From an uncultured bacterium (lineage in GTDB: Bacteria; Verrucomicrobiota; Kiritimatiellia; RFP12; UBA1067), in NCBI GenBank assembly GCA_902776615.1, contig CACYQU010000006.1, positions 7,757-71,756 of the forward strand: a stretch of 64,000 nucleotides of DNA, in the 5' to 3' direction. The translations under genes and the position numbers were made by a program. This document shows positions 10,442-46,976 of the stretch, piece by piece. The notes under the pieces were generated by a model. It had not been told where the DNA came from, searched no databases, and saw only the letters and a list, made by a program, of their open reading frames with translations. The stretch's first letter is position 1. Each line of letters begins with the position of its first letter.

Positions 10442-10573
10442 ATGAAAGTTTGCAAAGTTGCCATAAGGGGTGGGCGTTTTTGCGTAATTAGCGCAATGGC
10501 GTTCGCTCTTTCCATATTCACCGCTCGTGCAGGGCATGATGATTATTGTAAAGTAACACACAAACACAACTAA
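10442..10573 (+). CDS. possible 43-aa signal-peptide-bearing small ORF (below the ORF-track size cutoff)
   Basis: AAGGGA RBS 6 nt upstream. Translation is MKVCKVAIRGGRFCVISAMAFALSIFTARA-GHDDYCKVTHKHN. Its stop codon overlaps the AAAGGAG RBS of the next gene. Confidence 0.3.
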   Translation: MKVCKVAIRGGRFCVISAMAFALSIFTARAGHDDYCKVTHKHN

Positions 10574-10589: not shown

Positions 10590-11564
10590 ATGAAGAAGGT
10601 TTATCTGACGGTTTCGCTGATGGCGGCGGCGGTCGCCGTCGTGACAGTCGGCTGCAAGTGCGAAAAGGTCTGCGGGGATGCTTGCGAGACGACGTGCGCC
10701 AAGGCGTGCGCCGCGAAGTGCGCACCGGTCGCGAAGCATGTCGTGCTTGTCGGCGTGGACGGATGCGGCGCGCGGTATATTCCGTGGGATGTTATGCCCA
10801 ACCTTAAGGCTCTGCGCGACGAGGGCGTTTACACGGTTGGCCGCTGCCACAGACCTACCGCTTCGGCGATCAACTGGAAGAGTGTTTTCAGCGGAGTTTC
10901 GCCCGAGATTCACGGTTTCACCAAGTGGAACAGCTCCTCGCCGTCGATCGAGCCGCCTGCGAGCGCATTCGACGCCGAGGGCCGCATCCCGTGCATATTC
11001 AGCGAAATACGCCGTCAGACCCCAGGCGCGTACACGGTAAGTCTCTTCGCCTGGGACGGAATCGGCAACTGCCACAACACGAACACGGTTAGTTTCACGC
11101 GCTGGTATGCCGGCAAGGGCGATGAATACCCCGTGCGCGACGCATCCGTCTTCGAGGAAGGGGCGCGCCAGCTCGCTAACGAGCCGACGCTCATGCTGCT
11201 CTATCAGGGCGGTGTCGACAACACGGGCCATAAATACAGCTGGGGAAGCCCCGAATACACGAACGCTCTCGTGCAGGTAGACGCGAATCTCGGCAAGTTC
11301 ATGACGGCCCTCAAGGGAACGGATATGTGGAAGGATACTGCCGTGATGTTCGTCGCCGACCATGGCGGCCTTGGCACTCACCACGGCGGAGTGGAGGATA
11401 TACGCGTTTTGGAGATTCCGTTCATTGTGAGCGGTCCGGCGGCCAAGGGGCTTCGCCTGCGCGAGCCGATGATGCTTGAGGATGTGTCGCCGACGATCGC
11501 GGCTCTCCTCGGCTACACGATTCCCGAAAGCTGGCGCGGACGCGCGGCGGCGGTCGCGCGCTGA
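10590..11564 (+). CDS. alkaline-phosphatase-superfamily nucleotide pyrophosphatase/phosphodiesterase (NPP-type) lipoprotein
   Basis: Lipobox VTVGC, then LVGVDGCGARY...MPNLKAL...T...PT.TA.NW.S..SG..P..HG, GGVDNTGHKYSWGSPEY and FVADHGG motifs typical of type I phosphodiesterase/NPP. Confidence 0.85.
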   Translation: MKKVYLTVSLMAAAVAVVTVGCKCEKVCGDACETTCAKACAAKCAPVAKHVVLVGVDGCGARYIPWDVMPNLKALRDEGVYTVGRCHRPTASAINWKSVFSGVSPEIHGFTKWNSSSPSIEPPASAFDAEGRIPCIFSEIRRQTPGAYTVSLFAWDGIGNCHNTNTVSFTRWYAGKGDEYPVRDASVFEEGARQLANEPTLMLLYQGGVDNTGHKYSWGSPEYTNALVQVDANLGKFMTALKGTDMWKDTAVMFVADHGGLGTHHGGVEDIRVLEIPFIVSGPAAKGLRLREPMMLEDVSPTIAALLGYTIPESWRGRAAAVAR

Positions 11565-12943: not shown

Positions 12944-14845
12944 TTGATGACAGTAGCGGAAGAGATCAAATCTGATCGCGAAACAGGCGCAAAAAAGCTT
13001 GAAAGCGAGTACAAAGCGGGGCTTATGGCTCTTGCCAGGTGCTTTTGTGCCGATGAATCCGACGCCGAGGAACTTGTCTACAGAACGTTTTCGAATGTCA
13101 TCGCCGGGATTGACGGCTATACGGAACAGTCGGCGTTCTTCGGGTGGATGTGCAAGATTCTCGTGAACTGCCATGCGAACGACGTCCGCCGCAAGTCCAA
13201 CGAAAACGAGGTAAGCGTGGGCGACGTCCCCGACTCGCCCGGCAGCGACGCTTCGGATGTTTTCAACTCAGTGGATGCGAACATTTTGCGCGAGGCGGTC
13301 GAGCAACTGCCTGCCCACCTGCGCGAGACGGTCGTGTTGCATTATTTCATGGATCAGCCACTCGTAAAGGTGGCCAAATTGCTGGCGCTGCCTGTCGGGA
13401 CGGTGAAGTCGCGACTCCACTATGCGCGTGTGATTCTCGGGCAGCGCCTTGGCGCAACGCTCAAGAAGCCCAAGGTTTTCGCGTCGCTATTGCTTGTCGC
13501 CGGGCTTGCGATAGGTTTGGTCGTTGGGCTTAATTTCGGCGAAAGGGCGTCTTTTAAGGCGACTGGCGACAAGGCGGCGACTGCGGCGGCAAGCGTTCGC
13601 AAAGGCGATGAATTCCTCGCGCAAGGCTCGGCCTATCTTGAGTCGAACGGCACGCAGGCCATAGTTCTCGACTACTGTGTAAACGCGAAGTCGCGCCTAG
13701 TCATCGATTTCCAGCTAATGTCCACCAATTCGTCGTGCCGCAAGGTATTCGGCGCGTTTTCGGACGGCGACAACAGCTACCGCGCGAGTCTCTGGTACAA
13801 CGGGCCGCGAAACATAGAGTTCAATATCGCAGGCAGCTGGCAGTCAACGCGCATGCGCGGCGACCTGGGTCGACATGTGGCGATGATCGACATTCCCAAT
13901 CGATGGCTCGCTTACGATGGCTGGCGTCAGCGTTTCAACGACGAAACGCCTGCATGGGGCGATGGCGCTTCGTATCCGCTGGCGCTTTTCGGCGAAAACA
14001 GAAGCGAAACGCCTACAAACATCCAAATGTGTGCGGCGGCGCGTGTATACGCGCTCGACATATACGAGAACGACGAACTCGTGCGCAAGTACCGCCCGGC
14101 GATCAAAGGCGGGCGCGTGGGGCTTTACGATTCCAAGACGGGGCGGTTTGCGGTTTCGCAGTCGCCGTTCGCGTATGGAGGCGACATACGGAAAATGCCC
14201 GACGATCCGAATTTGCAGTCCGACAGGACGCAGACGATCGCGCTGGACTACGCGATAAACGCCGATACGCGGCTTGAGGTTGACTACGCTCTCATGGACT
14301 GGACGCGCGGCGGTTCGACGCTTTTCGGAACGACCAACCCCGATCCTGACGAAGCCTTCCGCTGCATGTACTGGGTTTCGGGCGGCGGCAACATGCAGTT
14401 CAATGTCAACGGCTCGTGGATACCGAGTTTCAACGGCGCGGGCGTCGGGCGGCATGTGGCGGTTTTGGACTTCCCGAAAATGAGGGTCGAATACATGACG
14501 GGCGAAACGCCCGCGTTTGTCCGCGCGATACCGTCCGAAAGCGCGTTTACCGCTGCGCGCAAGCCTCTGCCGATAATGTTCTTCGGGGAGAATTGGGGCG
14601 ATCCGCTGTGCATCAACAACCACAACAACCGCACTGTTTCGATGAAGCTTTACGGCGTGAGGGCGTATGAGAAGGGCAGGCTTGTGCGCGACTACCGCCC
14701 GGCGCTGCGCGACGGCGTGCCGTGCCTGCACGACGAGATCACGGGCGCGTTCTGCACCGACCCGCGCGACCGGGCGCCGTTTCTGGCGTATAGCGGACAG
14801 ATCCCGCTGGACAAGATATTCGGGCTCATGATGGTTTTCAAGTAA
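12944..14845 (+). CDS. ECF (sigma-70 family) sigma factor fused via one TM helix to a duplicated extracytoplasmic beta-rich module
   Basis: Region 2 (ELVYRTFSNVIAGIDGY....FFGWMCKILVNCHANDVRRK), region 4 HTH (LPAHLRETVVLHYFMDQPLVKVAKLLALPVGTVKSRLHYAR) and a TM helix (VFASLLLVAGLAIGLVVGLNF). Two ~190-aa repeats follow, each ending (R/K).Y..(D/R).YE...LVR.YRPA...G....D..TG.F. The start may be ATG 12947. Confidence 0.85.
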   Translation: MMTVAEEIKSDRETGAKKLESEYKAGLMALARCFCADESDAEELVYRTFSNVIAGIDGYTEQSAFFGWMCKILVNCHANDVRRKSNENEVSVGDVPDSPGSDASDVFNSVDANILREAVEQLPAHLRETVVLHYFMDQPLVKVAKLLALPVGTVKSRLHYARVILGQRLGATLKKPKVFASLLLVAGLAIGLVVGLNFGERASFKATGDKAATAAASVRKGDEFLAQGSAYLESNGTQAIVLDYCVNAKSRLVIDFQLMSTNSSCRKVFGAFSDGDNSYRASLWYNGPRNIEFNIAGSWQSTRMRGDLGRHVAMIDIPNRWLAYDGWRQRFNDETPAWGDGASYPLALFGENRSETPTNIQMCAAARVYALDIYENDELVRKYRPAIKGGRVGLYDSKTGRFAVSQSPFAYGGDIRKMPDDPNLQSDRTQTIALDYAINADTRLEVDYALMDWTRGGSTLFGTTNPDPDEAFRCMYWVSGGGNMQFNVNGSWIPSFNGAGVGRHVAVLDFPKMRVEYMTGETPAFVRAIPSESAFTAARKPLPIMFFGENWGDPLCINNHNNRTVSMKLYGVRAYEKGRLVRDYRPALRDGVPCLHDEITGAFCTDPRDRAPFLAYSGQIPLDKIFGLMMVFK

Positions 14846-14872
14846 CACAAAAGAACAACAAAGGAGCAAAAC

Positions 14873-17716
14873 ATGCAACACAGGATAGGAATGAGGAGAA
14901 AGGGCGCGACATTGTTCGCGGCCGCATTCGCCACAGTCTGCTCGTTTGCAGGCGTGAAATACTGGGACAACCCGGAGTTCAAGGCCTTCGACGTGGGCGA
15001 CTACGTGCAGGACGGCCTCGTGCTCAACTACGACGGCATCCGCAACGCCGGCCCGACCGCCGACCATGACCCGAGCGCGACGACGTGGAAGAACCTCGGC
15101 TCCGGCGGCTCGGCATACGACATGACGAAGAAAGGCTCTCCCGTCTCATCCTACTGGACTGGTAACGGTTTCTATTTCGACAGCAAGACATGGTTCGTCA
15201 CGCCGAGCAAGGTGGCGCTTCCGAATGCATACGAAATTGAGACGCTCGTCGATGCGGAATACGCGAAGCAAACCGACATTGGATACATATTTTTCTCGAG
15301 CACCATATACCCACGTGCGGACGACGGAGGCTGGGCGTGGAGTTCGATTGCCATCAGAAAGAACGGCACCACATATAATCAGACGATCAACGGTAAGCAG
15401 TATTCGGCTAAATCCTGTTTTAACACTACTTCCGCCAACTCCGCGTACCGTCCATCTCTTATGGACACCTCGTACCAATACCTCACCGCACTCGCGAACA
15501 AAACCTATGTCAGTTTCTTCACGGGCGTGGAAGAAACTACCGACGTTCCCGGTCGCATCGGTCTCGCATCTGGCAAGACCGCACTTGGCTCGACATCCCT
15601 CTATTTTTACCTCGGCGGGCACAATACGAACGGCGGCGGCGAGACGTCCACCGGCGAGGGGCTCACCGGCACGATCCGCAACTTCCGCTACTACTCCGCG
15701 CCGCTTTCCCGCGAGCATCGCGTCTGGAACCGCGTGGTGGACGAGGCCCGCTACTTCCATCGTCGCGGTGCAATCCCCGTGACGAACGTCGTCGTCGCCG
15801 TCTCTGGCATCGTCGGCATCGCCGACGACCACTTCGCCATCGACGAGGATGGCTACACCTTCACCGCGCCCACCTCCCGCACCGTCGAGGGCAAGCGCTA
15901 CGCGCTCGGCGGCTACACGCTCGAAACGTGGAACGGCTCTGCATGGGTGGCGGATGGAGAAGGAACGCATACTGACAACGCGGTCGCGATCTCCGATGCG
16001 TCGGTGCTCGTCCGCATCACATGGCAGTATTCGCGCCCGGCCGGCGAGGGCCAGCTTGCGCACTACGACGTGAGCGACTACGTGACGGACGGGCTCATGC
16101 TCTTCTACGATGGCATCCGCAACCAAGGCGCAAACGCGCCACACGCCTACGACGCCACGACCTGGGTCAATCTCGGCAATGGTAGCGGCGACAGCCAGGA
16201 CTGGACGCTCGCAATCAAGCACAAGGTGACAAGCGGTGCCATAGGCTATTGGGCGGACGACGGCTACGAGTTCAAGGGCTTCAGTGATTTCCAGAAGACG
16301 GGCAACAGTTTCACCATCCCCGTCACGCACACGATCCAGACATTGATCGACGCTTCAATAGATGAACAGTATTGGACAAGCGCCCAGGCGTATGTGTATG
16401 CGACGGCGTGGGACAAGTCGTCTCTTGCGTTGAGAACCAAAGACGACAATCCCAAAGCGAATTCCTTCTACTGGGTCACGCAAAGCGACGGCTCGCGCAC
16501 CTACATGCTGAACAGCAGTGGCCGATATGATTACGCAACCGCCATTCAAGATGGCGATGCGAAAACGGCTGCGTTCTTCGCCGGCGTGACGCCCCCGGCG
16601 TCCGGCGGGCTTGCCGATGGATTCAAACAGTATGACTCGGCACTCACTTCCGCATCAGTGGCCAACATCTTCCTTGGCGGATACAATTCCGACAGCCATA
16701 TGTTTACCGGCAAGTTCAAGTTCTTCCGATATTACCCGAACAAGGCGCTATCCCCAACCGAACTTGCCAAGAACCGCAAAGTCGACGAATACCGCTACTT
16801 CGGACGCTACGTCGTCACGAACGTCCTCGTGCAATCGACCTACTCCTACCTCGAAGGCTACGACAAGAGCGGCCCCTACGAGGTGGTTGACTCCTACACC
16901 TTCACCGCGCCGGAGAGCGTGACGGCGGCGAACGGCATCACCTACGCCTGCGACGGCTACACCGTCGAGACGCAGGATGGTATCGGCTGGGCGGCGCTTA
17001 CTTCCGGCACCGGCAATTCCTACCTCTACAACACCTCCGCCGGAACCGTCCGCCTCACCTGGAAGTGGAAAGCTACTAAGGGTGTGCGCACTGCTGCGGA
17101 TTACTCGCTGGACGATCTCTCACAGGCGGGTCTTGCGCTCCACTACGACGGCCAGCTAAACCAGGGCGTCGGTGTCGCCCGCTCCACGACCTCGACGAAG
17201 TGGATCAACCTCGGCTCGCGCCCGGGCATGGACCTCAGCCGCGCCACAGCGGGAAGCGACACCTCAAAGCATGGCCACTGGGGCGACAACGGCTATGTAT
17301 TCACCGGGCTTGCGCAGTTCAACAGCGCCGCCGGGCTTCAGTGGGCGACAACCTTCTCCGCACAGGCGCTCGTAGATGCGAAGCACTCCGACAACACGCA
17401 CAAGGACGGCAACTACATCGCCGCAACTACATGGAAGATGTTCGGCATGCAGATCTACGGCGCGAATAGTGTCGGGCGCTTCAATGTGCAGGGCACGTCC
17501 GATATCGACAAGTGCCCGCATTTTGAGACCGCAACCGGCATTGACTACATGACCGCCATCCACGACGCCGAGACGAAAACCGCGCTTGCCTTCCAAGGCA
17601 CGAAAGCTCCGACAGGCGGCAGCGCGGCGGACGGCTATATGCACTTCAACACCTTCAACGGCATTGAGAACAACCAGTTCCGTCTCGGCGGCTGGGGCGG
17701 CGGGACCGCGTGCTGA
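14873..17716 (+). CDS. secreted triple LamG-like (concanavalin-A-type lectin) repeat protein, N-terminal 947 codons (interrupted by a frameshift)
   Basis: AAGGAG RBS and a signal-like N-terminus. Three copies of (Y/L)...GL.L.YDG..N.G......T.W.NLG...D......W...G(Y/F).F.G are each followed by an ...RYF linker and a ~85-aa beta module (VTNV.V...Y.F.AP....G..Y...GYT.E......W......). Confidence 0.85.
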   Translation: MQHRIGMRRKGATLFAAAFATVCSFAGVKYWDNPEFKAFDVGDYVQDGLVLNYDGIRNAGPTADHDPSATTWKNLGSGGSAYDMTKKGSPVSSYWTGNGFYFDSKTWFVTPSKVALPNAYEIETLVDAEYAKQTDIGYIFFSSTIYPRADDGGWAWSSIAIRKNGTTYNQTINGKQYSAKSCFNTTSANSAYRPSLMDTSYQYLTALANKTYVSFFTGVEETTDVPGRIGLASGKTALGSTSLYFYLGGHNTNGGGETSTGEGLTGTIRNFRYYSAPLSREHRVWNRVVDEARYFHRRGAIPVTNVVVAVSGIVGIADDHFAIDEDGYTFTAPTSRTVEGKRYALGGYTLETWNGSAWVADGEGTHTDNAVAISDASVLVRITWQYSRPAGEGQLAHYDVSDYVTDGLMLFYDGIRNQGANAPHAYDATTWVNLGNGSGDSQDWTLAIKHKVTSGAIGYWADDGYEFKGFSDFQKTGNSFTIPVTHTIQTLIDASIDEQYWTSAQAYVYATAWDKSSLALRTKDDNPKANSFYWVTQSDGSRTYMLNSSGRYDYATAIQDGDAKTAAFFAGVTPPASGGLADGFKQYDSALTSASVANIFLGGYNSDSHMFTGKFKFFRYYPNKALSPTELAKNRKVDEYRYFGRYVVTNVLVQSTYSYLEGYDKSGPYEVVDSYTFTAPESVTAANGITYACDGYTVETQDGIGWAALTSGTGNSYLYNTSAGTVRLTWKWKATKGVRTAADYSLDDLSQAGLALHYDGQLNQGVGVARSTTSTKWINLGSRPGMDLSRATAGSDTSKHGHWGDNGYVFTGLAQFNSAAGLQWATTFSAQALVDAKHSDNTHKDGNYIAATTWKMFGMQIYGANSVGRFNVQGTSDIDKCPHFETATGIDYMTAIHDAETKTALAFQGTKAPTGGSAADGYMHFNTFNGIENNQFRLGGWGGGTAC

Positions 17717-18045
17717 CCGAGGAGGAACTGATCCGCAACCGCAATGTCGACGCGGTGCGCTACTTCGGCGAGCTGGCTGTGACGAATGTAGTGGTGTCGC
17801 TCAACGGCGTCGAGACCGCCTGCAAGGTTGAAGGTTCATACACCTTCGACGCATCCGGAGAGACTGTCGGCGGCAAGAGAGTCGTCGGTTATTACACAGA
17901 GGAGCTTGGCGCCAACGGCGAGTGGACTAACAAGAAGTGGAATAACGGGACTGAATACACCTATACCGAAGCGACCGCCAATGGCAAGACGATCCGTCTT
18001 ACCTGGAGCGGCCCGCGTCCAGGCATGATGATTATCGTTTGGTAA
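17710..18045 (+). CDS. C-terminal 111 codons of the same LamG protein in the -1 frame
   Basis: LTEEELIRNRNVDAVRYFGELAVTNVVVSL...TIRLTWSGPRPGMMIIVW completes the third repeat exactly as in repeats 1 and 2. Adding one G to the GGG run at 17702-17704 restores one frame (..LGGWGGGDRVLTEEEL..). Confidence 0.8.
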   Translation: MLTEEELIRNRNVDAVRYFGELAVTNVVVSLNGVETACKVEGSYTFDASGETVGGKRVVGYYTEELGANGEWTNKKWNNGTEYTYTEATANGKTIRLTWSGPRPGMMIIVW

Positions 18046-18209: not shown

Positions 18210-18283
18210 GCGGGCGTAGCTCAATGGCAGAGCTCCAGCCTTCCAAGCTGGCTACGAGGGTTCGATTCCCTTCGCCCGCTCCA
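18210..18283 (+). tRNA. tRNA-Gly (anticodon UCC)
   Basis: GCGGGCG acceptor pairs with CGCCCGC; anticodon loop CTTCCAA; GGTTCGATTCC T-loop; encoded CCA. Confidence 0.95.
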
Positions 18284-18293
18284 TGGTCGGCAC

Positions 18294-18379
18294 GCCAGGG
18301 TGGCGTAATGGCAGCCGCGGCAGACTCAAAATCTGCTATACGCGAGTATGTGCGGGTTCGAGTCCCGCTCCTGGCACCA
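18294..18379 (+). tRNA. tRNA-Leu (anticodon CAA), class II
   Basis: GCCAGGGTGGCGTAATGG D-arm typical of tRNA-Leu; anticodon stem-loop GCAGA-CTCAAAA-TCTGC; long variable arm; GGTTCGAGTCC T-loop; CCA. Confidence 0.95.
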
Positions 18380-18403
18380 GTGCTTGAGACGAACGATGCG
18401 ATT

Positions 18404-18493
18404 GGAGGGGTGTCCGAGTGGTCGATGGTGCAACCTTGGAAAGGTTGTGTGGGGGCAACTCCACCGGGGGTTCGAATCCCCCCCCCTCCGCCA
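18404..18493 (+). tRNA. tRNA-Ser (anticodon GGA), class II
   Basis: GGAGGGG acceptor; anticodon stem-loop CAACC-TTGGAAA-GGTTG; long variable arm; GGTTCGAATCC T-loop; CCA. Confidence 0.95.
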
Positions 18494-40006: not shown

Positions 40007-40627
40007 CTAGTTTTTCAGCAGCTCGCGGTGTATGGCGATTGCGACTGCTTCGGCACGGTTCGCCGCGCCGAGTTTTTCGTATATCTCGTTCAGGTGCTGC
40101 TTGATGCGCGTCTTGGAAAGCCCCAGTTGCCGCGCTATGTCGTCGTTGGAAAGTCCGCGCGTTATCGATTTCAGCACTTCCATCTGGCGAGGCGTGAAAT
40201 CCGGAATCCCGGCTGTGTCGTCAAGCGCCTGGCGTATTTCTGGCGAGAAGTGTGGCATTCCTTCGGCCGTATCGTGTATGGCGGCGACAAGTTCTGCGTT
40301 GGCGATGTTCTTTGTCACCGCGCCTGTCGCGCCGGCCGACACCGCGCGCGAAAGTTCCCTCGATGTCCCGAATGTCGTCAGTATCAGTATCTTCGCGTCA
40401 GGCATTACTTTGCGGATTGCAGCTGTCGCCTCCGCGCCATCCAGATCTGGCATCATGAGATCCATCACGATCACATCCGGCTTGAGACGCAGCGCCGCAT
40501 CTACTGCTTCAGCGCCGCTTTCCGCCGTGCCGCATACGGCCAGGTCTTTTTCCAGATCGAGTATCGCCGCAAGTCCCATCCTCACGATGGAATGATCGTC
40601 GACAATCATCACGCGAATCTTCTTCAT
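40007..40627 (-). CDS. NarL/FixJ-family response regulator (REC + LuxR-type HTH)
   Basis: IRVMIVDDHSIVR...DVIVMDLMMPDLDG..A receiver domain; LTPRQMEVLKSITRGLSNDDIARQLGLSKTRIKQHLNEIYEKLG HTH. Confidence 0.9.
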   Translation of the reverse strand: MKKIRVMIVDDHSIVRMGLAAILDLEKDLAVCGTAESGAEAVDAALRLKPDVIVMDLMMPDLDGAEATAAIRKVMPDAKILILTTFGTSRELSRAVSAGATGAVTKNIANAELVAAIHDTAEGMPHFSPEIRQALDDTAGIPDFTPRQMEVLKSITRGLSNDDIARQLGLSKTRIKQHLNEIYEKLGAANRAEAVAIAIHRELLKN

Positions 40628-42672
40628 AGCGGAATCTCCACAGTCGCGGCGGCGCCGCCGCCTATTTTGCTCTCCAGCTTCAGCGTCCCGTGCAGGCGAC
40701 GCGTCCGCTCCTTTATGCCCTGTAGGCCGAAATGCCCTTGCGACGGGCCTGGACGGCTCTCAACGTCGAATCCGCGTCCGTCGTCCCTGACCACAAAGCG
40801 CAGAAAGCCGTTCTTCAACTCGCCCGCTATGCGTACATTGCGCGCGTTGCCGTGCTTGACCGCGTTCACGCACAGCTCGCGTATGATCGAAAGCACATTG
40901 TGCGCGATGATGTCGGGAATGTGGTGTCGGCTCACGTGAAAGCGTATCGCCACTCCCGCGTCTTGCATGTGTGGACGCACCGTTTTCTCGATCGCGTCCT
41001 GAAGGTCCGGTTCGGCCAGAGTTTCGCTTCTTAGGTCCCGGAGGCAGCGGCGCAACTCTTCCCGGCACGAAAGAAGCGCCTTTTGCGCAGCCGCGATATA
41101 TCCCGCCGCCGCAGTCGCTTCATGCGGCAAAGTACGCTCTGCCGCGTCAATCTGGAACGATACGCCCGTGAGCGTCTGGGCGATTGAATCGTGCAGCTCG
41201 ACGGCGAGTCGCGTGCGTTCCTCGACTCGCAGATCGGCGGCTGCCGACTTCAGTTTCGTCTTGTACAGCTGTCTTCCGCGGCGTTCGACGAGGCGGCGTA
41301 GCGTGTGGTTCCACACAGCCGCAAGCGCAAGAGCCGCCGCGAGCACAAGCACAATCGCGAGCATTCGCCCTACCGTCCACCAAGGTGGGCCGGAGACGAT
41401 GTGCAGATCCGCCGGCGTTCGCGGCACGATGGTGAATCCTGCCGTGCGGGGGAATCCGCGTGAAACATCCGGGCTCGTATTGCGAACGCACGTGCCTGCA
41501 ACTTCCACAAAACTGCCTGGACCGACCGTATCCACATTCGGCGCGATTGCGCCGTAGTCGACGCGTATCAAGTGACCGCCATACTGCATTTCGAACACGT
41601 GCGCGTCCCTGTCCTCTCCGGCGACGCGTCCGCGTATGCACACGGCTCCTCCGCGTGCGCAGATGTCGCGCAAGACAACCTCCATGGCGAACCGTTCCGG
41701 CAGCGGACGCGGCGGATCGTCCGCGAGACGGCTTCCCGGCACGCGGCGGCATATTGCTTTGGCGAGGCTGATGATGAAGAGGTCCGTCACCGGGAATCCC
41801 GCCGCGGCGACGCTTTCGCCGAACTCCATATCGGCGGGCATCCTTAGCTCTGCGCCCACTATCTGCCCGTCGGCCGTCTTCAGCAGCAAGCGCCGAGCGT
41901 CGTCGTACACGGCGATGACATTCCCGACGACGCTTCTCATGCCCATTCGCGAAAGCGCCGACACCGACTTGTAACGCAATCCCTCGAGCGTCTTCTGCGG
42001 ATAGGACGGTATTCGCGGGGCGTCCAGCGGGTCTTCAACAGGCGGCGTTTCCACGATGATGTCATCGACGCTCGCTACCGTGAGCTGAGGCGTCTGGAAC
42101 TTTCTCTTGCCGCCGTCAGGCAGTACGGCCGCAATGCCCTTCGCCGCGACTGACGCACCGAGCAGACGACCGAGCGCCTCGTCGTCGTCCGAACAGACCG
42201 CCGCAAAAAACGGCGTCGAGTCTGTGCGCATGAGGAGGAATCGCCAGGCTGGGTCGATTTCATCGTGGACCACATCAGTCACGATGCCTCGCATGAGGAC
42301 GGTGCGTCCGTCAAAGGATTCGTCGCAGAGCTGTTCGGGGGAAGCCGGTACGGGCGAGGGGACTTCGCCGCGTCCGAGGTGCACCGCGCTTTCCATGAAC
42401 GCGCGCCGCCAGTCGAAGCCGTCCGCGCCGATATGCCCTTGCGCGACAATTCTGTCGCCGGACGCGACATCGAGGGAATTTGTCGCGCGCATGTATCCGT
42501 AGTCTGTGTCGTCCGCGACCCAATAGGAAGTGTGGCGCGCATCCGAGCGAATCACCGCAGTGACGGTGCATGTCACGGAAAAATATTCGCCGTCGTTCGC
42601 CTCACTCCACACGGCCTGTCGGAGCGCGGCGACATTTGCGATCGAAGCGAACAATATTGCTGCTGAAGTCAT
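40624..42672 (-). CDS. sensor histidine kinase (HisKA_3/NarX-DesK type) with ~440-aa N-terminal extracytoplasmic region
   Basis: TM helix WWTVGRMLAIVLVLAAALALAAVW; H-box RLAVELHDSIAQTLTG; HATPase_c (ELCVNAVKHGNA ... DDGRGF ... GLQGIKER); 4-nt overlap with the regulator gene. Confidence 0.85.
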   Translation of the reverse strand: MTSAAILFASIANVAALRQAVWSEANDGEYFSVTCTVTAVIRSDARHTSYWVADDTDYGYMRATNSLDVASGDRIVAQGHIGADGFDWRRAFMESAVHLGRGEVPSPVPASPEQLCDESFDGRTVLMRGIVTDVVHDEIDPAWRFLLMRTDSTPFFAAVCSDDDEALGRLLGASVAAKGIAAVLPDGGKRKFQTPQLTVASVDDIIVETPPVEDPLDAPRIPSYPQKTLEGLRYKSVSALSRMGMRSVVGNVIAVYDDARRLLLKTADGQIVGAELRMPADMEFGESVAAAGFPVTDLFIISLAKAICRRVPGSRLADDPPRPLPERFAMEVVLRDICARGGAVCIRGRVAGEDRDAHVFEMQYGGHLIRVDYGAIAPNVDTVGPGSFVEVAGTCVRNTSPDVSRGFPRTAGFTIVPRTPADLHIVSGPPWWTVGRMLAIVLVLAAALALAAVWNHTLRRLVERRGRQLYKTKLKSAAADLRVEERTRLAVELHDSIAQTLTGVSFQIDAAERTLPHEATAAAGYIAAAQKALLSCREELRRCLRDLRSETLAEPDLQDAIEKTVRPHMQDAGVAIRFHVSRHHIPDIIAHNVLSIIRELCVNAVKHGNARNVRIAGELKNGFLRFVVRDDGRGFDVESRPGPSQGHFGLQGIKERTRRLHGTLKLESKIGGGAAATVEIPL

Positions 42673-42819: not shown

Positions 42820-45800
42820 ATGAAACGACACATGCTCGCAACGCTCTTCGCAATGGCCTCGCTTTTCGCGTCCGCCGCCGCAACGGTGATAAATGTTCCG
42901 GCGAATGGCTCTCTGGAGCTGACGAGCGGAAACAACAAGGACAATACAATCATCGTCGCGGCTGGAGGAGCTACGATCACGTTTGCGAACGGAAGCGGAA
43001 ACAAGACGTTTTATCCGCACCTTGTCGTTTCTGGCGGCGTTGTGCGCGTCAGTTCGTCTGGATTTTCCCGTTATCGGTTCGTCTCTGGCGTCCGTGCCGT
43101 CGACGGAGGCTCGCTTGAAATCGTCGGCGTTTCAACGATAAGCATCGACCGCAAGACAATTCCAGACCCCACTGATATCATGCCGGCCACCGGCCCACTT
43201 TGCGACTTCGACAACGTAAGCTTCACTTCCGGTTCCGGCAAACTTGCGTTCAATTACAATGCCACCGTCCGCCGGTTGCCGAACTGCAAGATCGTCGTGG
43301 AGCCAGGCGACAGTGCGGTGCCCACGACGGTTGCCCTCGCAAGCACTGACTCTAACGCCGCCGCTGCGCTGCTTGATGCTGGCTCGCTTTGCCTTACCAA
43401 CTTCAACGCCATAGCGCTTACGGCGAATGCGCTTCCCGACAGATGCAATGTGCAGGTTTCACCAGGGCGAACTTTCAAGTTCGATCAAGGGAATCTTTCT
43501 GCTGATGGTTTGACCTTGACGCCTTCCTCCGGTGCGACAGGCCTCTTCAACATTGAGCTTCTCGGGCGTGGTGCGACGGTGTGCTTTGCAAATGATGGAG
43601 GAAAGAACATCCGATGCGAGTCAAACATCACAGGGCTTGGCGAAATTCTCTTCAAGCCGAATTCAGGAACTGTCATAACGCGCTTCCGCGGCATGGCCTA
43701 TACGGCGACAGATTCTTCGTCATTTTCAATTCCGGTTGACACGGCGAACGAGCCTGTTCCCACAGAGAGCTGGAAGTCAAAGGTTTCGCACTGGTTCGAC
43801 GCTTCTGACGAGTCGACGCTCGTACCGTTCTCGTTCGATCCGTCCGTCTGGGGCGGCAATTGGGTAAGCGCAAAAAACGAATTCGATGGGAATCAGCTTG
43901 TCATTGGCATGAAGGACAAGGTGGAGGGTTCTACTGTGTCGCTGTACAACAAGCGGCTATGGAGCGCAGGCGGGCGTTTCAGCGCGTCGCAATATCACCT
44001 TCAGGTCCTGCCGTATAGGGTAAAGGACGGTTTGAACGGTAAGACGTATTTGAGTTGCGGAAAGCGCGGTGTTTCATCCGATGGAGCTAAGTATGATTCC
44101 AACGGCAATCTCATATCATCAACCGAGAACCGCCGTCTCAAATTCTGGAGTTCCACGGCGATTGACGGCAGCACAGTTCCATCAGGTGACTATACCAAGA
44201 TCAGTGCATCTTATGCAATACTCGTTTTCGGTTCGCAGAACGGCGGGGGCGAAGCGGTAATCGGTACGGACGGCAATCAGGTGTCCGGGAACGGTTCGTT
44301 TGTCCGGCAGAGTGGAATCGACAAGGCATGGACTACCCGAGACGGTTATTCCATGCATGCTGATGGGCTTACTGTAAATCCGAAAAATGCAAAGCCGAAC
44401 GGCGGATGGCAGATTCTATCTATAGACATGTCGGCAACAAATACGCTGGTCAACGGTCTCGGGCCGATGGATGCCAATGCCAACGAAACCGACTGCGGCG
44501 GTCAGAACTACGCCGAAGTCATCTTCTTCTCCGAGAAGCCGACGACTGTCGAGCGCGCCGCCTGCGAGCGCTACCTTGCCGAGAAGTGGGGCCTCGAATC
44601 CTCTTATGCGCAGTGGGATGTCCCGTATGCGCAGCTTAGCGGCAGTTCTGGAACTGTAACCCTTTACGATGACGTCAGAACCACATACGACAGTGTGGAA
44701 AAGATAGCTGCGGAAGGTTCGTTCTCCGGCACAGTAATCATACCGTCCGGAAAGACGCTGGTCATTGAGAAGCCACTTCCACCTACAGAAGCGGATGTGT
44801 CGGAGACGAATCGCGTCGGATGGTACGACCCCGACTTTTCGGGTGCGGTTGTATACGATGCAACCGCGCTTGGACACGACGATTTGCTCTACGTACTTTA
44901 TGGCAGGACGTTGGTGGACTTGTGCACAGACGATAACGATATATGGTTCACGAGCGGATGGCGCGGAAATAGCGGGGCCGTCAACAATTTCGCACCTTCC
45001 GTCTCACGGTCTGCACGAGGTGCGCTTACAACCGGCCCTAAACGCAACTGGCTCAATTTCAAGGAAAGTTACGGGGATTCCCTCGGTAATATGATTCGCT
45101 CTCGCAAGGTAAGTTCGGGCGTAAACGGATCCATGTACGGCATGAAAGTCCGGCAGGGGTTCTTTGTCGTCGATACTTCGTCCGGAGGCGGTGACATATT
45201 CAATACAGATGCTACGTTTTCTAACGGCAAGATAAAGCCCCGCACCGACGGAAGCGACAGCAGCAAACCGATCTGGCGTGATGGTACGGTCGCTATGTCA
45301 GGTACATGGCTCGACACGGACGAGATCAACGGGGCGGAGCGAGGCTACAACGGCAGGGCAGAGGTTTTGTCTTTTGCTACCGAAAGCGAGACTTTGAATG
45401 TGGGGTATGTTGCAAACTACAATGGTTCTCATGCCGAGATTGTCGGTGAATTCATACTCTACTCCGAGCCTCTGGAGGATGCGGCACGGACGAAGGTGCA
45501 GGAGTACCTGATGTACAAGTGGTTTGGTGACCTGAACGGGAAGTACGCAGACTACTCCGGCGCGACTGTTACGGGCGCAGGTACGGTTAAGAGCCCGACC
45601 TTGCGCAACCTGCCGAAGTTCGGCAACAACTTCACGGGCGAACTAACCGGCGGCTCGCGGCTTGAGTTCAACCTTGGCGCGGAAGGCGTCGCCGATGCGT
45701 TGGCGATTGGCCGTGCGCTCGCGTTGGAGAATGGCGCGACTGTTACGGTGAATGTGAGCGGCAAGCCGGCAGCAGGCCATTATACTCTGCTGACTGCGAC

Positions 45801-45930
45801 GTCCATAACCGGCTCGGCGACACTTGACGTGAACGGTCTCCCGGAAGGACGCAGGGCTGTTCTGCATGTCGAAACGAGTGAAATCTGGCTTGAGATTCTT
45901 TCGCCAGGTCTTATGATCATCGTGCGCTGA
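42820..45930 (+). CDS. large secreted beta-helix/LamG-repeat protein
   Basis: Start at MKRHMLATLFAMASLFASAAA signal peptide. Two LamG-like modules each end in ER..CERYLAEKWGL / AR.KVQEYLMYKWFG. The C-terminus ends in SPGLMIIVR. Confidence 0.8.
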   Translation: MKRHMLATLFAMASLFASAAATVINVPANGSLELTSGNNKDNTIIVAAGGATITFANGSGNKTFYPHLVVSGGVVRVSSSGFSRYRFVSGVRAVDGGSLEIVGVSTISIDRKTIPDPTDIMPATGPLCDFDNVSFTSGSGKLAFNYNATVRRLPNCKIVVEPGDSAVPTTVALASTDSNAAAALLDAGSLCLTNFNAIALTANALPDRCNVQVSPGRTFKFDQGNLSADGLTLTPSSGATGLFNIELLGRGATVCFANDGGKNIRCESNITGLGEILFKPNSGTVITRFRGMAYTATDSSSFSIPVDTANEPVPTESWKSKVSHWFDASDESTLVPFSFDPSVWGGNWVSAKNEFDGNQLVIGMKDKVEGSTVSLYNKRLWSAGGRFSASQYHLQVLPYRVKDGLNGKTYLSCGKRGVSSDGAKYDSNGNLISSTENRRLKFWSSTAIDGSTVPSGDYTKISASYAILVFGSQNGGGEAVIGTDGNQVSGNGSFVRQSGIDKAWTTRDGYSMHADGLTVNPKNAKPNGGWQILSIDMSATNTLVNGLGPMDANANETDCGGQNYAEVIFFSEKPTTVERAACERYLAEKWGLESSYAQWDVPYAQLSGSSGTVTLYDDVRTTYDSVEKIAAEGSFSGTVIIPSGKTLVIEKPLPPTEADVSETNRVGWYDPDFSGAVVYDATALGHDDLLYVLYGRTLVDLCTDDNDIWFTSGWRGNSGAVNNFAPSVSRSARGALTTGPKRNWLNFKESYGDSLGNMIRSRKVSSGVNGSMYGMKVRQGFFVVDTSSGGGDIFNTDATFSNGKIKPRTDGSDSSKPIWRDGTVAMSGTWLDTDEINGAERGYNGRAEVLSFATESETLNVGYVANYNGSHAEIVGEFILYSEPLEDAARTKVQEYLMYKWFGDLNGKYADYSGATVTGAGTVKSPTLRNLPKFGNNFTGELTGGSRLEFNLGAEGVADALAIGRALALENGATVTVNVSGKPAAGHYTLLTATSITGSATLDVNGLPEGRRAVLHVETSEIWLEILSPGLMIIVR

Positions 45931-45959: not shown

Positions 45960-46976
45960 TTGAAGTGTGACAGGCGATCGTTCCTCGCGCTTGCGGCCGC
46001 AGGGTTTGCAGGGTGCCTCACAGGCGACGACAGTTTGCCTGCGGCTGAGACCGCAGGCGCGGCTGATGGCGCGGCGGACGCGTCCGTCGGGAAGTTCGAC
46101 GAGAATCTGAGCATCATATTCTCCGACGCGCACGTGTGCGGAGAGGAGGCGCGCGCTGCGGAGTTCACGCCTAGGCGCCTTGCGGCGTTCGTCGACGAGG
46201 TGCTCGCGATGCGTCCGATGCCGAAGCGCGTTGTCCATCTCGGCGACCTCGCCTACCTTCACGGACATCCTGCCGACTATGCAGTCGCCAAGCCGATTCT
46301 CCAGCGGCTGGAGGACGCGGGCATAGAGCTTGTCTTCTGCATGGGGAATCACGACCGCAGAAGCGAGTTCGCCAAGCTCTGGCCGGGCCGCCTTGAAGCG
46401 TCGCCTGTGCAGGGGAAGTTTGTGTCGGTCACTTCGCTCGGCACTGCCGACCTGGTGATTCTCGACGGACTTCAGGGCACGGACGACCGCCTGCTTACCG
46501 ACATTGGGCCTGGAAACGGTCTCATGACGCCCGACCAGTTTGCGTGGATAAAGAAGAACCTCCCGAAGCGCGAGCGCCCGTTCTTCGTCGCGTCGCACTT
46601 TCCGGTCGACGACTTCAAGACGTCCGACAAGAAGCACGGACACCTCGGTCGCTGGCTCATAAAGAACGCCCCCATGTGCGTCGGCTATCTTTACGGACAT
46701 CTCCACCGCTGGCGTCCTGAGTGGATTCACGGTTCATGGAAGGAGCGCGCCACCCTGCGCACGCTTTGCATGCCGTCGAACGCGCTCTGGGGCGATATCG
46801 GATATGTGAAGATGCGTACTTTCGCGGATCGCGCGGTGTGCTCGCTTGAGTTGAAGGACTTCTTCTTCCCGGCCGAGCCGCGGGATCCAAACGACCGCGC
46901 CGCACCGTGGCGCGTGAAGATCGAGGAGACGCGCGGCGCGACATGCACATTCCTCTACGACAGACAGGGAGGTTGA
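45960..46976 (+). CDS. Tat-signal calcineurin-like metallophosphoesterase (paralog of 23957-24895)
   Basis: DRRSFLALAAAG signal; FSDAHV, LGDLAY, MGNHDRR, ASHFP and LYGHLHRW motifs; TTG start. Confidence 0.8.
   Translation: MKCDRRSFLALAAAGFAGCLTGDDSLPAAETAGAADGAADASVGKFDENLSIIFSDAHVCGEEARAAEFTPRRLAAFVDEVLAMRPMPKRVVHLGDLAYLHGHPADYAVAKPILQRLEDAGIELVFCMGNHDRRSEFAKLWPGRLEASPVQGKFVSVTSLGTADLVILDGLQGTDDRLLTDIGPGNGLMTPDQFAWIKKNLPKRERPFFVASHFPVDDFKTSDKKHGHLGRWLIKNAPMCVGYLYGHLHRWRPEWIHGSWKERATLRTLCMPSNALWGDIGYVKMRTFADRAVCSLELKDFFFPAEPRDPNDRAAPWRVKIEETRGATCTFLYDRQGG

Follow-up and report, generated by a model that had tools for sequence, protein, structure and literature searches.

Why should proteins of different build end in nearly the same seven residues, with nothing after them? 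The question is raised by a 64,000-nt stretch of DNA from an uncultured bacterium of the Kiritimatiellia (positions 7757-71756 of contig C6, CACYQU010000006.1; hereafter the window), which belongs to an assembly of 2.35 Mb in 127 contigs with 58% G+C. An initial annotation of this stretch had pointed to three proteins with a similar C-terminal tail and had proposed a novel short sorting or processing tag. Listing the open reading frames (ORFs) confirms all three tails, FGLMMVFK-stop at 14819-14845, PGMMIIVW-stop at 18019-18045 and PGLMIIVR-stop at 45904-45930. We take the tail to be a genuine short tag for sorting or docking; a literature search found no published description of it. That it is a tag is supported by its enrichment and by its independence of fold; it may serve in sorting and may be cleaved. 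The tails and the genes that carry them are as follows.

12947-14845, plus strand: extracytoplasmic function (ECF) sigma factor with one transmembrane helix and a tandem LamG ectodomain, tailed; 632 aa from the ATG at 12947, with a TTG at 12944; C-terminus ...PLDKIFGLMMVFK
14822-14842, plus strand: tail heptad GLMMVFK of the sigma fusion; F precedes at 14819-14821, stop codon at 14843-14845
14873-17716, plus strand: N-terminal ORF (947 aa) of a protein with a triple (LamG + immunoglobulin (Ig)-like) repeat; signal peptide; truncated by a frameshift; begins 27 nt downstream of the sigma fusion
17648-17716, plus strand: lesion in the triple-repeat gene, about 46 nt absent relative to orthologues (gaps of 27, 9 and 10 nt)
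17710-18045, plus strand: C-terminal 111-aa frame of the broken triple-repeat gene, ending PGMMIIVW-stop (heptad at 18022-18042); C-terminus ...SGPRPGMMIIVW
42820-45930, plus strand: secreted 1036-aa protein, tailed; signal peptide, beta-helix-like N-terminus and conserved 125-aa C-terminal domain; C-terminus ...EILSPGLMIIVR, that is SPGLMIIVR-stop (heptad at 45907-45927)

One of the three genes is not as first described. The triple-LamG protein had been taken for a single intact ORF, but its 947-aa ORF stops at ...GGGTAC and the tail lies in a separate 111-aa frame. DNA and protein alignments with the orthologues in two other assemblies (L003 and L005), together with three-frame translation, place the lesion at approximately 17648-17712, where the 10-nt gap shifts the frame and deletes the conserved ...GTLKSIRYYDR strand. 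The gene is thus either a pseudogene or carries an assembly error. The intact orthologues are 1097 aa (L003) and 1074 aa (L005) long and end in PGMKLVIR and PGLLIMLR, and because both end in R, the terminal W of the window's copy may be a sign of decay.

The tail is enriched at exact C-termini

A scan of the whole proteome gives strong enrichment, and about 27 carriers instead of three. Specifically, 16 of 19,155 six-frame ORFs end in the strict motif G[LMIV]M[LIMV][LIVM][LIVFM]x, against an expectation of 0.039 computed from the internal frequency of the motif in the genome's ORFs (Poisson P ~1e-36); the core motif is found 16 times at the terminus and 7 times internally. A broader motif, G-x-h-h-x-h-[R/K/Y]-COOH (h, hydrophobic), ends 26 of the 2,676 ORFs of at least 250 aa, where 0.35 are expected. 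An ORF of 718 aa on contig C63, ending GGELVFVK, fits the broad expression and was excluded from the carriers because its sequence, on reading, did not resemble theirs. With a second flavour of the tail included, the carriers number about 27 proteins, more than 1% of the genes. Their size is nearly always 570-2500 aa, with a signal peptide at the start, and one is an 83-aa mini-protein made up of a signal peptide, some 55 residues and the tail.

The second flavour, G-[LTM]-T-[IFL]-[TS]-[FV]-Y, is found on six proteins. It alternates and has an aromatic end, and it occurs on LamG and beta-helix paralogues of the R/K-flavour proteins (contigs C11, C18, C30, C40, C42, C63 and C76). One pair of paralogues ends ...KTLKFGSCEGLTISFY in the second flavour and ...KSLKFGCDKGLLIIIK in the hydrophobic R/K flavour.

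In a sequence logo of the tails, position -7 is G, -6 is L, T or M, -5 a variable hydrophobic residue, -4 I, L or V, -3 I, L or V with some S or T, and -2 V, F, I or L, while the last position is R in 68% and K in 20%, followed by Q and H. Taken separately, 88% of the external tails and 76% of those in the genome itself end in R or K. Upstream, E shows no enrichment and P reaches about 25% at both -8 and -9. Positions -4 and -2 are never polar, whereas -3 and -5 sometimes are, and the tail therefore has the periodicity of a beta-strand. The Gly at -7 is not absolute, since many relatives of a tailed protein on contig C56 (the C56 family) have P, A or S in its place (e.g., ...PAPVPFVIIVR). The general form is G (or P/A/S)-x-x-h-x-h-[R/K, less often Q/H/Y/E], and the consensus originally drawn from the three tails (L/M-M-I/M-I/V) is too narrow, being the flavour of this genus.

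The codons of the tail vary among copies, all three stop codons occur and the downstream DNA differs, so that selection must act on the peptide. Stop-codon read-through, or a longer hidden signal, was considered as well and is ruled out, as all three stops are used and the in-frame downstream sequence is unrelated.

Conservation and range

The tail is conserved well beyond close relatives; the homologues bear the name 'Kiritimatiellae bacterium' at NCBI. With the 1036-aa protein as query, an exhaustive HMMER search of 1.84 billion representatives returned 419 relatives; among the best 150, which share at most 50% identity with one another, 106 fit G-x-h4-[RKWHQ]$ and most of the others are near-variants such as GISVSFR and GLKVIVR. 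Relatives of the sigma ectodomain with 26-32% identity end in GACLIIR, GMVLIYR, GTLLLVR, GMVIIIK and the like, and orthologues of the sigma fusion with 70-93% identity keep FG[LI]MMVF[KR]. For the C56 family, the G form is found in 50 of 89 members and the P/A/S form in most of the remainder.

The tag is also restricted by lineage. A degenerate DNA pattern, G-x-h4-[K/R(AGR)]-stop, matches 20 times in this genome against 5 times for the reversed control, and 131 against 43 times in 18 genomes of the same genus, family or order (e.g., 18/1, 20/4, 15/1 and 14/5), counts that rest on AGR and AAR codons, are blind to CGN Arg and stand on a background of several matches per genome. The same pattern shows no excess in the other orders of the class as a group, nor in the other classes of the phylum. 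Tails do occur on the beta-helix family in two genomes from other orders (G001 and G044), and the tag is therefore concentrated in this order of Kiritimatiellia but not confined to it. The exact DNA pattern of the L-M-I-I form, with 15 copies here and 0-2 per genome in 200 other genomes of the class, had suggested a species-specific tail; this was rejected, as the homologue searches find the general form to be widespread. A further genome of the class, G006, contains the 24-mer GGCGCGATCATTATTCTCAGGTGG and near-identical copies, encoding G-A-I-I-I-L-R-W, at least 7 times at seven loci; these copies look more like a repeated element or a gene family than like a terminal tail.

The tail probably takes the place of PEP-CTERM

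The sorting signals LPXTG, PEP-CTERM, GlyGly-CTERM and MYXO-CTERM each led to a dedicated processing enzyme, and all of them are tripartite and include a membrane helix. In PEP-CTERM the three parts are the PEP motif, a hydrophobic helix of about 20 residues and a basic cluster. The tail is not built in this way: it consists of five hydrophobic residues and one R/K, which agrees with the earlier remark that the hydrophobic stretch is too short to span a membrane and is followed by no basic cluster. The sorting-domain models of NCBIfam and Pfam, TIGR02595 / PF07589 included, have no match on the window's tail proteins.

In its position, the tail is equivalent to PEP-CTERM. The 125-aa terminal domain of the 1036-aa protein (A3) was made into a profile, in which the Gly of the tail is among three invariant columns, and 80 genomes from outside the order were screened with this profile. 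In two of them the A3 domain is followed by a full PEP-CTERM exactly where the tail stands here, namely ...LQLTATAIPEPATVGLGLGVVAFLSALTLRRRQ in G259, of another class, and ...GYLTVIPEPGSLLLLGLGSLALALRRRFVK in G008, of another order. The distribution of TIGR02595 differs between lineages as well: 25 genomes of the order have a mean of 4.4 matches, almost all on ORFs of 155-250 aa, against a mean of about 18 in 19 genomes of other orders, where proteins of 900-2100 aa are among those matched. The tail-positive G001 and G044 have 0 and 1 matches, respectively, and the genome itself has only three such proteins (181-195 aa; contigs C14, C15 and C19), none of them tailed. We read the heptad as having replaced PEP-CTERM on the large proteins of the lineage, judging from these sequence comparisons, and it may have been derived from PEP-CTERM by loss of the helix core.

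The genome encodes one exosortase (C42:22966-24510, 511 aa), which passes the TIGR02602 8TM_EpsH model, has an EpsI-like C-terminus fused to it and fits no named subtype. An exosortase is present in 21 of 21 genomes (the genome itself and its genus and order relatives), in 7 of 7 further genomes of the family or order, and in G001 and G044. Five tail-lineage genomes (G204, G214, G215, G217 and G001) have a strong exosortase without any TIGR02595 match, whereas outside the lineage the exosortase of genomes without PEP-CTERM is missing or gives a weak match only. G214 has four exosortase paralogues. The enzymes of the order are mostly 500-640 aa long (EpsI-like fusion), compared with 300-380 aa in other orders.

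The alternative that survives best is that the tail is a miniaturised PEP-CTERM, an exosortase signal minus its membrane core, which the exosortase-EpsI protein would bind from the periplasm, cleave near the Gly and transfer to an acceptor. We regard this as unlikely, though it deserves to be taken seriously. Homologous C-terminal domains do have a complete PEP-CTERM in the place of the tail (...TVIPEPGSLLLLGLGSLALALRRR compared with ...EILSPGLMIIVR), and PEP or EP stands ahead of some tails (APEPPGMMIIVR, NEPLGLMIIVR), but PEP is not conserved in the logo, and the requirement for an exact C-terminus is foreign to PEP-CTERM. The enzyme would be an inner-membrane one that tethered ECF sensors could reach, but five hydrophobic residues can neither span the membrane nor present the motif laterally. 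Likewise, the exosortase accompanies the tail in all tail-lineage genomes tested, plus G001 and G044, and five genomes retain a strong one without a TIGR02595 match, but these are metagenome-assembled genomes (MAGs) of 71-92% completeness, the gene is unlinked to the tail genes on the contigs, and the three small canonical PEP-CTERM proteins of the present genome are enough to account for its retention; small canonical substrates are found in most of the genomes.

Tails on ECF sensors

Residues 1-175 of the sigma fusion are an ECF sigma factor, i.e., a member of sigma-70 group 4 with regions 2 and 4 only: PF08281, PF04545 and PF04542 match, and TIGR02937 scores 55.5 bits against a cut-off of 42.9. 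A single transmembrane helix, KPKVFASLLLVAGLAIGLVVGLNF, can be read from the sequence. Since the sigma domain must be cytoplasmic, the two LamG domains and the tail would be periplasmic. At L003 and L005 the intact triple-repeat gene lies 26-28 nt after the orthologue of the sigma fusion while the flanking genes differ, and the sigma fusion and the tailed LamG protein therefore form a conserved two-gene module.

The association with ECF sigma factors recurs. A BLAST search of the genome with the sigma part identifies a second ECF sigma, with 35% identity, on the minus strand of C56, where the order is ECF sigma, a gap of 25 nt, a tailed 749-aa protein and then a twin-arginine metallophosphoesterase. 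The 749-aa protein consists of a cytoplasmic N-terminus of approximately 57 aa, one transmembrane helix, a linker, a relic signal peptide, a LamG-like body and the tail GLMIIIK; the relic internal signal peptide is identical to the N-terminus of secreted homologues. Its family exists in three forms: a secreted form of about 615 aa that starts at the signal peptide, an anti-sigma-like form of about 745 aa in which 31 of 32 members have the G-tail, and a sigma-fused form of 884 aa (P0229) composed of sigma, helix, the same linker, the body and RGTVLILR. Because this family has three forms and the sigma fusion of the window is tailed too, the ECF sensors of the lineage have been built more than once from tailed secreted proteins, with the tail kept. 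The initial annotation had suggested that recognition of the tail could be coupled to signalling, and this suggestion gains support from the tailed, anchored protein behind a second ECF sigma and from the tailed, sigma-fused P0229.

The presence of the tail on ECF sensors anchored in the inner membrane also means that whatever reads it must be reachable from the inner membrane or periplasm. This favours an exosortase, the type II pseudopilus or platform, or PDZ proteases over anything on the outer face of the outer membrane.

C-terminal peptides are known to activate the site-1 proteases of ECF pathways, as in the pairs of outer membrane protein (OMP) YxF with DegS and MucE WVF with AlgW. By analogy, a PDZ protease (DegS/AlgW or Prc/CtpA type), or BamA/BamD, might read the tail here, which would then be a degron or stress signal on proteins that fail to be exported and a cleavage trigger on the ECF sensors. 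Such envelope surveillance, or mimicry of the OMP beta-signal, seems improbable to us. The recurrence of the tail on ECF anti-sigma-like proteins is in its favour, as is the aromatic end of the second flavour, and G-x-x-h-x-h is the generic core of the beta-signal. However, the hydrophobic register is one off the terminal-Phe rule: the beta-signal has a terminal aromatic residue and hydrophobic residues at -3 and -5, the tail has its hydrophobic residues at -2, -4 and -6, 88% of the external tails end in Arg or Lys, and only the minor flavour, G-L-T-I-T-F-Y, has an aromatic end. The carriers, moreover, are soluble LamG or beta-helix proteins and not barrels. A degron would also be costly on about 27 abundant exported proteins, and the positional equivalence with PEP-CTERM points to sorting and not to degradation.

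Tail and fold are separable

A comparison of the carriers finds the tail in five or more unrelated C-terminal contexts:

Ig-like module: ...TVEVTNEPLGLMIIVR
LamG + Ig repeat: ...IRLEWAPEPPGMMIIVR
beta-helix-type terminal domain: ...IWLEILSPGLMIIVR
jelly-roll repeat protein: ...GEAIRDGLMIILR
sigma ectodomain

Conversely, internal copies of the same modules do without the tail. Of the units in the triple-repeat protein, the first two close with ...VRITWQYSRPAGEG and ...VRLTWKWKATKG, respectively, and continue into the next module, and only the third has the tail behind it (...IRLTWSGPRP-GMMIIVW). Likewise, the first jelly roll of the sigma fusion closes with ...PFAYGGDIRKM and the second with ...PFLAYSGQIPLDKIF-GLMMVFK.

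The predicted structures give the same picture. For the sigma ectodomain (434 aa, 20-row alignment), AlphaFold2 returns two confident jelly rolls with a mean predicted local distance difference test (pLDDT) of 83.8, and the last ten residues as coil with pLDDT below 50. For the last 330 aa of the 1036-aa protein, the terminal domain is modelled with pLDDT 85-96 and its last strand is EIWLEIL, after which SPGLMIIVR is coil with pLDDT of about 60. Thus unrelated contexts, tail-less internal repeats, coil in two models and conservation at 26-50% identity all argue that the tail is not the final strand of a shared domain.

The fold assignments themselves need some revision. LamG or jelly-roll folds had been ascribed to all three proteins, and for the sigma fusion the assignment is right, because Foldseek matches its ectodomain to laminin LG4-5 and neurexin LNS pairs (E ~1e-9, probability 1.0). 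It is weak for the relatives of the triple-repeat protein, where PF13385 (LamG) matches are faint, and no match supports it for the 1036-aa protein, which has no Pfam or NCBIfam match and whose C-terminal model gives no significant Foldseek match. PF13385 does match several other tail proteins.

On a purely structural reading, the heptad would pair with the strand before it, either as a cap or edge strand or by strand exchange in an oligomer, and would have no part in sorting. There is little probability left for it. The tail always follows a beta-strand and tight turn, has strand periodicity, resembles the first strand of LamG repeats (DGLMLFYDG compared with PGLMIIVR) and, in the 1036-aa family, belongs to the conserved domain A3. 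But a structural strand does not explain why one heptad is found behind an Ig-like module, LamG, a beta-helix, a jelly-roll pair and the body of an 83-aa mini-protein, why internal copies of these modules fold without it, or why AlphaFold leaves it unpacked although the adjoining domains are confident. It needs neither an exact terminus nor a final Arg or Lys, and leaves the lineage-wide switch from PEP-CTERM unexplained.

The last alternative is an artefact, in which the tails would be due to chance, to a repeat in the DNA itself (the palindrome GATGATCATC in the codons of L-M-I-I) or to a longer signal that was truncated or recoded. It is already effectively refuted by the comparison of codons and stops and by the enrichment: CTG ATG ATC ATC does make a 10-bp palindrome with GATC inside, but synonymous codons vary, the palindrome-free GLLIIIK, GLILIVR and GMVILVK are equally terminal, all three stops are used with unrelated sequence behind them, and P is ~1e-36.

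A docking model for the tag

Our preferred explanation, to which we would give a probability of roughly 0.55, is an autonomous C-terminal tag on exported proteins that is captured in the periplasm by a reader, which directs the proteins to the cell surface or holds them there, with ECF sensors using the same site. The tag consists of a short, often Pro-rich linker, the Gly (or Pro, Ala or Ser), five strand-periodic residues and a terminal Arg or Lys with a free carboxylate, and marks exported glycan-binding or adhesin-like proteins of this Kiritimatiellia order, many of them encoded in gene clusters for carbohydrate-active enzymes (CAZymes). In the model, the tail would remain unfolded after Sec export and would then be captured by the periplasmic reader through addition of a beta-strand combined with recognition of the carboxylate and the basic side chain; capture would direct the protein to the cell surface or hold it there. 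The ECF sensors probably share the docking site, which would couple the state of the site to transcription of the adjacent tail-protein gene.

Several observations weigh against this docking model. No gene is consistently adjacent to the tail genes and no reader can be named from the neighbourhoods, and none of the approximately nine pilin-like genes in the genome is within 6 kb of a tail gene. The A3 profile matches in the two genomes with PEP-CTERM have weak E-values (4e-5 and 4e-3 per genome), and the counts of the DNA pattern survey carry the codon restriction and background given above. Two orthologues of the sigma fusion with 64-66% identity have ...DIFESMVARLPVTQKENSDEAHNL instead and have lost the terminal position of the tail, and because of this loss the tail may be dispensable on the sigma fusion. 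Finally, AlphaFold monomer models are compatible with a tail strand that packs on its own protein in vivo.

The exosortase and the tip of the type II pseudopilus are the best candidates for the reader. The exosortase-EpsI fusion is a tentative choice, with odds clearly against it, and the type II secretion pseudopilus tip is a somewhat more doubtful one. A bolder version of the docking model treats the heptad as a linear, anchor-free export or docking code that is read by beta-augmentation at the pseudopilus tip or the exosortase, with the ECF sensors as built-in competitors that would measure the load on the machinery and tune the transcription of lectin genes. We consider this version a long shot. 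If true, diderm bacteria would have in it a first linear targeting signal of this type, together with a sigma circuit that senses secretion load.

The tag matters in other respects too. The gut and rumen lineage concerned is abundant but uncultured, and a helix-less tag of seven residues on over 1% of its genes would broaden the rule for sorting signals and would point to a new reader. It probably sets the display of substrate-capture proteins in polysaccharide-degradation loci and would be a functional counterpart of the surface lipoproteins of Bacteroidota. On the ECF sensors it ties gene regulation to protein sorting in a way that can be put to the test, and with the motif, surface or secreted proteins can be predicted by a simple rule when Kiritimatiellia MAGs are annotated.

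Neighbourhoods and other features of the window

The neighbours of tail genes, including those on the long contigs of homologues, are CAZymes (glycoside hydrolases), a histidine kinase and metallophosphoesterases; the homologue neighbourhoods on long contigs show CAZymes but no recurrent candidate reader. Two further features of the window are of interest here.

45960-46976, plus strand: metallophosphoesterase with a twin-arginine signal (Pfam PF00149), directly 3' of the 1036-aa tail gene
10533-10556, plus strand: possible relic tail GMMIIVK-stop of a 22-codon ORF, found as a pattern match in a gene-free stretch

Twin-arginine metallophosphoesterases of this type (PF00149) stand immediately after tail genes in the window, on C42, C56 and C63, and at L003:12302-13423, and the tail gene and metallophosphoesterase look like a recurrent two-gene unit. 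A histidine kinase (HisKA_3/HATPase; 40624-42672, minus strand) with a large periplasmic N-terminal region is divergent and upstream of the 1036-aa tail gene, for which it is a possible local regulator.

The initial annotation had also held that no other protein of the window ends like the three. This is correct for intact genes but not for the 22-codon ORF, which ends ...VQGMMIIVK-stop at 10533-10556. The ORF lies in a gene-free, repeat-rich stretch, 34 nt before a phosphatase/sulfatase-like gene at 10590, and may be the relic of a lost tail gene; a tblastn search of the sequence upstream of it found no similarity to tail proteins.

Directly after the broken LamG gene is a cluster of tRNA-Gly(TCC), tRNA-Leu(CAA) and tRNA-Ser(GGA) at 18210-18493. 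The ORF listed from 18418 overlaps the tRNA-Ser, and the start of the FAD-dependent oxidoreductase therefore lies further in.

Comparison with known systems

The most instructive precedent for a tail that docks is the plug of PilC/PilY1, a 12-residue tail that is disordered alone, docks on the minor pilin PilK by beta-strand augmentation and is both required for placement and enough to bring it about (Denic et al., 2026, bioRxiv 10.64898/2026.09.18.752573). The tails described here are similar in that a very short element, ~1% of a large, lectin-like, Sec-exported protein, is disordered in the monomer model. They differ in sequence, in that the carriers have no PilY1 beta-propeller (no Pfam match) and no linkage to minor pilins, and in number, with dozens of carriers per genome against one or two.

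The PEP-CTERM/exosortase system (TIGR02595; Haft et al., 2006, PMC1569441) shares with the tail the extreme C-terminus of beta-helix and LamG proteins with signal peptides, the identical position after a homologous domain, and the order of Pro/Gly, hydrophobic and basic residues. The tail, however, is 7 residues long where PEP-CTERM has about 25, lacks the membrane helix and a conserved PEP, carries a single basic residue and not a cluster, must stand at the very end of the protein, and is not matched by TIGR02595. GlyGly-CTERM with rhombosortase, MYXO-CTERM with myxosortase, and the C-terminal domain of the type IX secretion system do not correspond to it either. The first two combine a signature (GG or an invariant Cys) with a transmembrane helix and a basic cluster, and the third is a domain of 70-100 aa, whereas the tail contains just one Gly, lacks both Cys and helix and matches no NCBIfam sorting model. 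With the OMP beta-signal and the peptides of DegS/AlgW it has in common the C-terminal G-x-x-h-x-h core and the connection of a C-terminal peptide with ECF activation, but its carriers are not barrels, it mostly ends in Arg or Lys, and it sits on the sensor itself and not on a separate signal protein.

For the sensors, the closest counterparts are ECF sigma factors to which a regulatory C-terminal extension is fused and the sigma/anti-sigma pairs of the polysaccharide utilization loci of Bacteroidota. There as here, sigma is tethered by one helix to an extracytoplasmic sensor with a glycan-binding fold, and the sensor gene adjoins the gene that it probably controls. The difference is that in this lineage the sensor is a copy of a secreted, tailed, lectin-like protein, which has kept the sorting tail and, in the C56 family, the relic of its signal peptide as well.

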